Below are positions 5,137-6,677 of a DNA stretch of 25,620 nt, piece by piece. Source of the DNA: a virus. Taxonomy: Duplodnaviria; Heunggongvirae; Uroviricota; Caudoviricetes. The stretch lies in the IMG/VR virus record IMGVR_UViG_2713896798_000006. The stretch is one strand, 5' to 3'. Numbering within the stretch: the stretch's first letter is position 1; the number at the start of each line of letters is the position of its first letter. Made by a program: the position numbers and the translations under genes. The notes beneath the pieces are model-generated. The model saw only the letters and a program-made list of their open reading frames with translations. It was not told where the DNA came from and did not search any database.

Positions 5137-5175
5137 ATTGATAACAGAGGGCGTTGCAGCGGGGTTGTCACTTAA

Positions 5176-6371
5176 GGAAGGTGCGAATAAGCAGGTCATT
5201 TCTTCCCAAGCTGACTCGCTGATTAAAATTTCTCGGATCTGGGCCGATTTTTTTCCCGCAAACACATCGAATCAGCCTATTTAGGCTATTTTTTCCACCA
5301 TTTCTGGCGTTATTTCCGGTTTTTACTGAGATCTCTCCCACTGACGTATCATTTGGTCCACCCGAAACAGGTTGGCCAGGGTGAATAACATCGCCAGTTG
5401 GTTATCGTTTTTCAGCAGCCCCTTGTATCTGGCTTTCACGAAGCCGAACTGCCGCTTGATGATGCGAAACGGGTGCTCCACCCTGGCACGGATGCTGGCT
5501 TTCATGTATTCGATGTTGATGGCCGTTTTGTTCTTGCGCGGATGCTGCTTCAAGGTTTTTACCTTGCCGGGACGCTCGGCGATCAGCCAGTCCACATCCA
5601 CCTCGGCCAGCTCCTCGCGCTGTGGCGCTCCTTGGTAGCCGGCATCGGCTGAGACAAATTGCTCCTCTCCATGAAGCAGATTACCCAGCTGATTGAGGTC
5701 ATGCTCGTTGGCCGCGGTGGTGACTAGGCTGTGGGTCAGGCCACTCTTGGCATCGACACCAATGTGGGCCTTCATGCCAAAGTGCCACTGATTGCCTTTC
5801 TTGGTCTGATGCATCTCCGGATCGCGTTGCTGCTCTTTGTTCTTGGTAGAGCTGGGTGCCTCAATGATGGTGGCATCCACCAAAGTGCCTTGGGTCATCA
5901 TGACGCCTGCTTCGGCCAGCCAGCGATTGATGGTCTTGAACAATTGACGGGCCAGTTGATGCTGCTCGAGCAGGTGGCGGAAATTCATGATGGTGGTGCG
6001 ATCCGGCAGGGCGCTATCCAGGGATAATCGGGCAAACAGGCGCATGGAGGCGATTTCGTACAGGGCATCTTCCATGGCACCGTCGCTCAGGTTGTACCAA
6101 TGCTGCATGCAGTGAATACGCAGCATGGTCTCCAGCGGATAGGGCCGTCGGCCATTGCCCGCCTTGGGATAAAACGGCTCGATGACTTCCACCATGTTTT
6201 GCCATGGCAGAATCTGCTCCATGCGGGAGAGGAAAATCTCTTTTCGGGTCTGACGGCGCTTAGTGCTGAATTCACTATCGGCGAAGGTGAGTTGATGGCT
6301 CATGATGTCCCTCTGGGATGCGCTCCGGATGAATATGATGATCTCATATCAGGAACTTGTTCGCACCTTCC
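5176..6371 (-). mobile_element. IS5, complete (~1.2 kb) with terminal inverted repeats and 4-bp target site duplication TTAA
   Basis: Ends GGAAGGTGCGAATAAG (5176..5191) and CTTGTTCGCACCTTCC (6356..6371) are inverted repeats; TTAA at 5172..5175 and 6372..6375; contains the 326-aa transposase ORF. Confidence 0.9.
5323..6303 (-). CDS. insH: IS5 transposase InsH
   Basis: 326 aa, [38 protein letters not shown]..., the canonical IS5 transposase. Confidence 0.9.
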
Positions 6372-6677
6372 TTAAGCGTATGGTCAACCTGACAACCCGG
6401 TGTCCTCAACGGGGGAAGGAATAACCCCGCCATACTTACCGCCGCGCCATTTCGCGGATTGCCACAACCGGAAGCGCACGGTCGACGAAAATTTAACGAC
6501 AGGCTATCTATGAACCAGCTACCTCGCCGTGCGCTTTCGCGTTATGGTCTGACTTTTCAGGGAAATATCCTTTCAGTAAACTGTCAGTGCCGGATGCTCA
6601 CCCGTGTCCGGCGCAAGCACTCCACCTCACCCGTGGAGAACTCCTTAATTACCAACCTTAGCTTCGTTGGTTAGCTA

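Follow-up and report, generated by a model that had tools for sequence, protein, structure and literature searches.

The closest described relative of the locus reported here is the dicBF operon of the Escherichia coli K-12 prophage Qin (ydfABC-dicF-dicB-ydfDE), which is under DicA repression and has an operator-covered PL-like promoter upstream of ydfA. In K-12, the small RNA DicF is made only from the polycistronic dicBp transcript, within which no internal promoter was found, and it occurs as a 190-nt species with a 5′ end generated by RNase III and as a 53-nt species generated by RNase E (PMC10448788). Two cases of IS5 insertion describe how transcription behaves around elements of this family. 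At fucAO, transcripts entering IS5 at the 5′ end of ins5A traverse the whole element and express the downstream genes, and a lacZ reporter on the far side of a complete IS5 is expressed from the ins5A end, an effect that an rrnB terminator abolishes (Zhou et al. 2025, PMC11894529). The ins5A promoter itself is described as extremely weak, and for the IS5 copy in nmpC it is an upstream host promoter, not the ins5A promoter, that supplies transposase mRNA (Onstead et al. 2024, PMC11677980). IS5 hot spots, where independent insertions reuse one exact tetranucleotide, are known at glpFK, flhDC, bglGFB and fucAO; these were defined by selected activation phenotypes and have been tied to SIDD or DNA-binding proteins.

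We analysed a stretch of 25,620 nucleotides assigned to a virus of the Caudoviricetes (IMG/VR record IMGVR_UViG_2713896798_000006; hereafter the window). It carries a lambdoid, putatively RacR-controlled prophage adjoining potC, in which ydfA, ydfB, ydfC, dicF, dicB and ydfD follow one another on one strand, the gene order of a dicBF-type operon. Its protein-coding genes and predicted control elements are:

4527-4718, minus strand: ydfD (DUF1482), intact (PF07358, 88 bits)
4715-4903, minus strand: dicB, 62 aa, intact (PF05358, 129 bits; NF049927, 134 bits)
6678-6896, minus strand: ydfC (open reading frame; RefSeq 'protein YdfC')
6926-7054, minus strand: ydfB-like small open reading frame (RefSeq annotation at the same position)
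7056-7211, minus strand: ydfA-like gene (DUF1391; PF07151, 90.8 bits)
7421-7393, minus strand: predicted PL-like operon promoter, TTGACA-17-TATAGT (11 of 12 consensus positions)
7396-7456, no strand assigned: predicted operator palindromes of the TAGGC-N4-GCCTA type, overlapping the -35 and -10 elements (repeat families D1/D2)
7530-8006, minus strand: RacR-type prophage repressor (NF049929 equivalog, 246 bits against a cutoff of 200)

Open reading frames, Pfam and NCBIfam models and RefSeq annotation agree in locating ydfC, dicB and ydfD where the initial annotation had placed them, and the same operon listing includes an 823-aa exonuclease gene downstream of ydfD. The repressor-controlled promoter claimed upstream of ydfA holds at the level of sequence, in the near-consensus promoter and the palindromes overlapping it, repression itself being established for K-12 Qin, but the repressor is a RacR equivalog and not DicA. 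With this equivalog (246 bits) and a divergent partner that is YdaS-like, accompanied by YdaT, a DicA/DicC immunity pair was ruled out. The TTAGGC-N4-GCCTAA palindromes that cover the promoter are also present at three places between the divergent racR and ydaS genes (8035-8102), with a 23-nt exact (100%) inverted copy, pair I2, that includes TTGACA; together with the predicted promoter, this arrangement has the appearance of an OL/OR-like layout. The operon thus resembles that of Qin in gene order, in a DicF that is one base apart, in a near-identical ydfC-dicF spacer and in its operator-covered promoter, and it differs in having RacR with YdaS/YdaT instead of DicA/DicC, in lying beside potC instead of rspB, and in being interrupted by an insertion sequence.

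The interruption lies between ydfC (6678-6896) and DicF (5135-5084), all on the minus strand, and consists of the following parts:

5172-5175, no strand assigned: target site duplication TTAA, DicF-proximal copy (read directly; the empty allele has a single TTAA)
5176-6371, minus strand: complete IS5-family element of 1196 bp (inverted repeats and target site duplication; transposase reads in the operon direction)
5176-5191, plus strand: terminal inverted repeat GGAAGGTGCGAATAAG at the transposase 3′ end, adjoining the DicF side (sequence and repeat search)
5323-6303, minus strand: intact 326-aa DDE transposase, an ins5A homologue (open reading frame, NF033581, PF01609, PF05598)
6356-6371, minus strand: terminal inverted repeat GGAAGGTGCGAACAAG at the transposase 5′ end, adjoining the ydfC side (sequence and repeat search)
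6372-6375, no strand assigned: target site duplication TTAA, ydfC-proximal copy (read directly; the empty allele has a single TTAA)

The repeats GGAAGGTGCGAATAAG and GGAAGGTGCGAACAAG match at 15 of 16 positions with 1196 bp between their outer ends, and their 12-nt core occurs at two sites in the window, both of them ends of the element, against 0.01 expected by chance. The transposase scored 366 bits against the NCBIfam IS5-family model NF033581 (cutoff 140) and 123 bits against Pfam DDE_Tnp_1 (PF01609), with PF05598 also matched, and its gene has a GAGG motif 5 nt ahead of the ATG. A DDE transposase, inverted repeats bounding about 1.2 kb and a 4-bp YTAR duplication, as judged against the empty site, together place the element in the IS5 family. 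The interval 5172-6375, given by the initial annotation for a complete IS, is exactly the element plus both copies of the duplication; the proposed TTAA duplication is borne out by the TTAA on either side and the single TTAA of the empty allele in OkiPb01711, K-12 and other genomes, and the position claimed between a ydfC-like gene and DicF, about 40 bp from the DicF 5′ end, agrees with a measured distance of exactly 40 nt from the IS edge, TTAA counted in. Likewise, ins5A and the operon share the minus strand, as had been stated. The junctions of the insertion are represented by the k-mers TTGTCACTTAAGGAAGGTGCGAA and TTCGCACCTTCCTTAAGCGTATGG.

The same prophage was found in strain OkiPb01711 with no IS and with one TTAA at the junction; once the IS is removed from the window, the two differ by one mismatch in 7801 bp. 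The insertion is therefore precise and TTAA-duplicating, and its surroundings are intact and near-identical to those of an IS-free prophage. Strains with and without the IS share the protein accessions of DicB, YdfD, YdfC and the repressor. Comparison with the K-12 Qin locus, which the initial annotation had recommended as a check, gave the same picture: in MG1655, a gap of 340 bp with no IS separates the end of ydfC (1649041) from the start of dicF (1649382), and a 200-bp query spanning the empty site aligned end to end with K-12 records (100% coverage, 99% identity). Among 5426 complete E. coli genomes, the IS-bearing 3-kb locus was present at 100% identity in two, SCPM-O-B-9504 from human faeces and SCPM-O-B-7615 from raw milk, both of Russian origin, whereas the uninterrupted site was present in 4033, K-12 included, the empty-site query matching 8989 places overall. 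The exact junction TTGTCACTTAAGGAAGGTGCGAA had no match in metagenome contigs, and a search of GTDB species representatives with a DicF core pattern returned six loci, all with the empty site and with an almost invariant spacer upstream of DicF. In the phage collection no close relative with the IS was found; the 'transposase' of PhiR42_1 proved to be a different element located elsewhere in that phage genome. A search of the literature on IS5 with dicF or dicB, and with the strain names, returned no report of the insertion.

The element had been called IS5, a label that did not survive comparison. It shares with IS5 (E. coli K-12, 1195 bp) and ISKpn26 the 16-bp inverted repeats opening GGAAGGTGCGAA, a 4-bp YTAR duplication and a single long DDE transposase frame within about 1.2 kb. 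It differs from IS5 in being 1196 bp long and 91.6% identical, with ends that are only 74-78% identical. ISfinder practice is to treat as isoforms elements that are at least about 95% identical. The comparison was made with the true IS5 copies of strains F95 and B379, which are 99.75% identical to one another; the window element is 91.6% identical to these (1196 against 1195 bp), its terminal 100 bp fall to 74-78%, and the DicF-proximal 100 bp stand at 74%. Identity and length rule out IS5 sensu stricto. RefSeq names the transposase 'ISKpn26 family', and from that annotation we refer to the element as ISKpn26-type. The event is best explained as the transposition of an IS5-family element of ISKpn26 type, recent and confined to one lineage, into the TTAA ahead of mature DicF.

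The position of the insertion relative to DicF depends on the identification of the small RNA itself, for which the relevant features are:

5084-5135, minus strand: DicF small RNA (Rfam RF00039, 75 bits, E=4e-15)
5101-5086, minus strand: DicF terminator hairpin (terminator-like site)
5136-5171, minus strand: native sequence remaining between the element and the 5′ end of mature DicF (40 nt once TTAA is counted)
6376-6473, minus strand: putative upstream ~97 nt of the 190-nt DicF precursor (from the species sizes in PMC10448788)

The DicF assignment of the initial annotation is secure, since the match covers model positions 1-52 of 52 in RF00039 at 75 bits (gathering score 48) and the sequence is one base from K-12 DicF, a change also present in the IS-free allele. 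Neither of the findings that the initial annotation had named as refuting, the same IS in K-12 or a mistaken DicF, was therefore encountered. By the K-12 species sizes, the 5′ end of the 190-nt form lies 137 nt upstream of mature DicF (PMC10448788), which would correspond to about 6472 in the window, within the 3′ arm of a long predicted helix. This reckoning puts the IS inside the 190-nt precursor, some 97 nt past the RNase III site and 40 nt short of the RNase E end, and the upstream ~97 nt of the precursor is now separated from DicF by 1.2 kb. With the IS inside the precursor, the normal RNase III-derived 190-nt DicF would no longer form, and the RNase E route alone would be left. Misfolding of DicF by IS sequence was considered and rejected, as RNA folding prediction for the IS-DicF junction retains the DicF stem-loops.

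The TTAA upstream of DicF has been used more than once. The 3-kb locus survey, which would join a same-orientation IS5-family element anywhere in the locus, also recovered strain F95, where a true IS5 of 1195 bp occupies the same TTAA in the same orientation within a distinct prophage in which kil replaces dicB and the repressor is different. Both sense-orientation events in the 5426 genomes are thus at the same TTAA. A junction query found a third case in B379, where IS5 lies at this TTAA in the opposite orientation within a Qin-like prophage that has dicA/dicC and adjoins rspB. When the survey was rerun with the IS reversed in the query, it returned an ISKpn26-type element in ydfB of VTB97432v (duplication TTAG), IS5 inside dicB in 2017C-4173W12 and LR-58-2 (duplication TTAA), and, outside the operon, IS5 in ydaT of CP53. 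Five independent IS5-family events in such operons were counted, and of the 25 YTAR sites a single one accounts for three (p ~0.015 under a uniform-site model, with five events). The three concern different prophages and comprise an ISKpn26-type element in sense, an IS5 in sense and an IS5 in antisense, and we conclude, from a small sample, that the TTAA upstream of DicF is probably a modest hot spot. It is like the established IS5 hot spots in the reuse of one exact tetranucleotide by independent insertions; in contrast to those, which were recognised through selected phenotypes, it is represented by three natural events in both orientations. Local AT content around the site is ordinary (42-50%). 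The TTAA lies in the loop of a 9-bp inverted repeat, now split by the IS with its 3′ arm at 5163-5171, but an explanation of the preference by a cruciform or hairpin was rejected, as the DNA fold was not significant (z=-1.8) and one arm carries an uncompensated change in some copies.

The carrier lineage is rich in insertion sequences. A query joining 100 bp of the IS end to 100 bp of DicF flank matched 24 places in SCPM-O-B-9504 and at least 40 in SCPM-O-B-7615, against a background of three places for the DicF flank alone, so that copies of the IS in the host lineage number from about 20 to 37 or more. The window differs from SCPM-O-B-9504 by one SNP (7438) and, immediately past the holin gene, by an additional IS66-family element of 2.5 kb; SCPM-O-B-7615 has a nested pair of IS66-family elements after the holin gene, where SCPM-O-B-9504 has none. 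The prophage is gathering IS elements within a lineage that is itself in IS expansion.

Regarding the consequences for the operon, we propose that transposition into the DicF precursor left the DicF/dicB module attenuated, repressor-dependent and reached by read-through in the sense direction, and we hold this account as a whole with moderate confidence. Neither DicF nor dicB has a promoter of its own in K-12 and the IS is in sense orientation, so that operator-controlled transcripts most likely reach both. Transcripts from the operator-controlled promoter would cross the 1.2-kb IS to reach DicF and dicB, and the module would remain repressor-dependent, with expression probably lower. The 190-nt intermediate would be lost and the 53-nt DicF would arise through the RNase E route. 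The transposase gene would become a passenger of the prophage early-left operon, co-transcribed upon derepression. In the repressed lysogen the insertion is probably near neutral, one more IS in a decaying prophage. Within the element and up to DicF, the sense strand has one weak terminator-like site, and no hairpin with a U-tract was seen between the ins5A stop and DicF; translation of ins5A is to be expected from its GAGG Shine-Dalgarno motif.

The locus resembles IS5 at fucAO in that ins5A points toward the affected genes and the whole IS would be crossed, and it differs in having a strong operator-controlled promoter upstream and no abutting Crp site. It resembles IS5 in nmpC in lying in sense downstream of a host or prophage promoter, where an ins5A fusion mRNA is expected, although in the window transcription would come from an early promoter of the prophage, one that is repressed under normal conditions. 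The evidence for read-through comes from true IS5 at fucAO, to which the window element is 91.6% identical and from which its context differs, and we would extend it to this locus with that in mind. The initial annotation had suggested that the insertion either uncouples DicF, DicB and YdfD from their promoter or supplies new outward transcription; both halves of this reading are weakened by published IS5 work (PMC11894529; PMC11677980), since the read-through at fucAO makes uncoupling probably incomplete and the extreme weakness of the ins5A promoter makes new outward transcription probably small. Read-through with attenuated, repressor-dependent DicF and DicB is thus the likeliest outcome, and full uncoupling or activation appear less likely. 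A hairpin followed by a T-run was also observed on the plus strand of the window IS (5274-5297), antisense to the operon, with a weaker one in IS5; as an antisense terminator it was given little weight, terminator-like counts being near shuffle expectation.

The strongest competing explanation, which we regard as possible though rather unlikely, is a polar block in which Rho-dependent termination or transcript instability over 1.2 kb cuts DicF, DicB and YdfD off from the promoter and silences a toxic module. Rho could act within the ~370 nt of untranslated RNA ahead of ins5A or within the 187 nt that follow the gene, but translation from the good ins5A Shine-Dalgarno sequence should shield most of the insert from Rho, and the sense strand ahead of DicF has no predicted intrinsic terminator. 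In favour of a block, DicF and dicB of K-12 depend wholly on the upstream promoter (PMC10448788); against it, at fucAO, transcription from the ins5A end crosses IS5 with little loss (PMC11894529). As a corollary, silencing would be tolerated or mildly favoured, which would account for repeated IS events, and the inactivating insertions elsewhere, in ydfB (VTB97432v) and dicB (2017C-4173W12, LR-58-2), the use of the shared TTAA in either orientation and the IS66-family element near the lysis genes of the same prophage lineage all lean in this direction. Both the operon-breaking insertions and the two orientations at the TTAA are compatible with silencing being tolerated or selected. All three lineages with an insertion at the TTAA retain an intact repressor gene, which excludes the insertions as suppressors of repressor loss, so that a need for silencing after such loss is not evident.

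A further proposal concerns the element instead of the operon. The TTAA upstream of DicF may be a genuine hot spot, and sense insertions there may set the transposase under the early-left promoter. Derepression of the prophage, whether induced or spontaneous in a subpopulation, would then switch on transposase synthesis and make this a 'master copy' coupling IS bursts to prophage induction. Such a copy could contribute to the multiplication of ISKpn26 in this lineage, from about 20 to 37 or more copies, but we consider the idea improbable.

Activation, in which the IS provides repressor-independent transcription or enhances a downstream promoter, would give low constitutive DicF and perhaps DicB, of use for example in phage exclusion, and appears to us very improbable. 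There is precedent in IS5 at glpFK, fucAO, bgl and flhDC, and the ins5A gene points toward the downstream genes, the orientation always found at fucAO (PMC11894529). That mechanism, however, depends on a Crp site abutting the ins5A side of the IS, and no TGTGA-N6-TCACA site with two or fewer mismatches, as for a fucAO-type fusion promoter, was found near 6372-6450. Descriptions of the native ins5A promoter call it extremely weak or even silent (PMC11677980; PMC11894529), and a search of the DicF-proximal IS end for an outward sigma-70-like promoter found none. Both sense events in the 5426 genomes fall at this one site, as activation might lead one to expect, and DicB protects against some phages (PMC10448788), yet the IS5 of B379 occupies the same site in the opposite orientation. 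As for an enhanced downstream promoter, only 40 nt lie between the IS and DicF, no internal promoter was found in the K-12 operon, and the DicF-proximal 100 bp are 74% identical to IS5, so that IS5 enhancer elements may be absent. Finally, misassembly or chance likeness without a true insertion is refuted by the perfect terminal structure of inverted repeats and target duplication, by identical junctions in two separately assembled complete genomes as well as the window, and by the existence of a matching empty allele.

In summary, the insertion is a known type of event, an IS in a prophage operon, at a new locus, and its position within the DicF precursor and the repeated use of its site give it mild interest. 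DicF and DicB are toxic division inhibitors that rewire metabolism and exclude some phages, and their sole known control is the promoter upstream of ydfA. An insertion inside the DicF precursor may serve as a natural experiment on the role of the 190-nt RNase III intermediate, on the sense polarity of IS5-family elements and on a prophage promoter driving a transposase, while the recurrent TTAA would offer a natural example of an IS5 hot spot found without phenotype selection. Apart from this, the locus shows the usual decay of a prophage through insertion sequences, in a strain where such elements are multiplying.

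Insertion at the TTAA tetranucleotide 40 nt upstream of DicF is a recurrent event, as two further E. coli prophages carry a true IS5 at the identical TTAA, one in strain F95 (locus L002, 3652-4846) and the other in strain B379 (locus L004, 5101-6295). These two prophages are unrelated, and their IS5 copies lie in opposite orientations at the shared site. Counting the window's own element, this TTAA has therefore been the target of three independent insertions.

IS5-family insertions also disrupt operons of this kind at other positions. In VTB97432v, an ISKpn26-type element (locus L014, 3441-4636) occupies the 3′ end of ydfB with a TTAG target duplication, and in 2017C-4173W12 an IS5 (locus L015, 1981-3175) lies within dicB with a TTAA duplication, as is likewise the case in LR-58-2; both the ydfB and the dicB insertions run against the direction of the operon. 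Strain CP53 carries an IS5 in ydaT (locus L016, 4354-5548) flanked by unequal tetranucleotides, CTAG and TTAG, and this mismatch suggests that the IS has mediated a deletion or a recombination event there, as opposed to having simply inserted.

The region interrupted in the window is the following, given with its counterpart in the compared locus L003:

6376-6677 plus 5136-5175, ydfC-dicF spacer (L003 3737-4078)

This spacer is nearly invariant among prophages of E. coli, E. ruysiae and Shigella, including those that have different neighbouring genes (kil or dicB). Its predicted fold is more stable than those of shuffled sequences (z=-3.2), and the inferred RNase III site lies within a long predicted helix; the sequences are too conserved for covariation to be informative.

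Elsewhere, the prophage encodes several small RNAs and a gene remnant:

12740-12914, plus strand, sok antitoxin RNA (114 bits)
about 16004-16366, TerB-family pseudogene with an internal stop, annotated in RefSeq (23605-23967 in the compared locus L001)
16538-16727, plus strand, STnc100 (Rfam, 148 bits)
16728-16789, minus strand, anti-GcvB sRNA AgvB (Rfam, 96.5 bits, identical to the consensus)

The sok RNA adjoins a hokD-type toxin gene, forming a predicted hok/sok module, and the TerB-family pseudogene lies downstream of the antiterminator gene. STnc100 and AgvB, the latter known from EHEC prophages, abut convergently (16538-16789).

Palindromes of the form TTAGGC-N4-GCCTAA, spaced by ~25 bp, occur at the ydfA-side promoter (7396-7456) and in the racR/ydaS divergent region (8035-8102), and include an exact 23-bp inverted copy containing TTGACA (7415-7437 and 8058-8080). 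The two clusters resemble the OL/OR operator pair of an immunity region of the RacR type. Over 19.3 kb the window differs from SCPM-O-B-9504 by a single SNP at 7438, immediately adjoining the 23-bp repeat (operator/-35) at the operon promoter; at this SNP the window has the allele of the IS-free OkiPb01711 prophage.

A 2.5-kb IS66-family element (19322-21853) is located ~35 bp 3′ of the class II holin gene and comprises:

19352-20965, minus strand, 537-aa transposase
20996-21346, minus strand, tnpB
21343-21768, minus strand, tnpA

Since this element is absent from SCPM-O-B-9504, and SCPM-O-B-7615 carries a nested ISEc8/ISEc23 pair at the corresponding position, the window derives from a third relative. 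The lysis region of this prophage is therefore also struck by IS elements.
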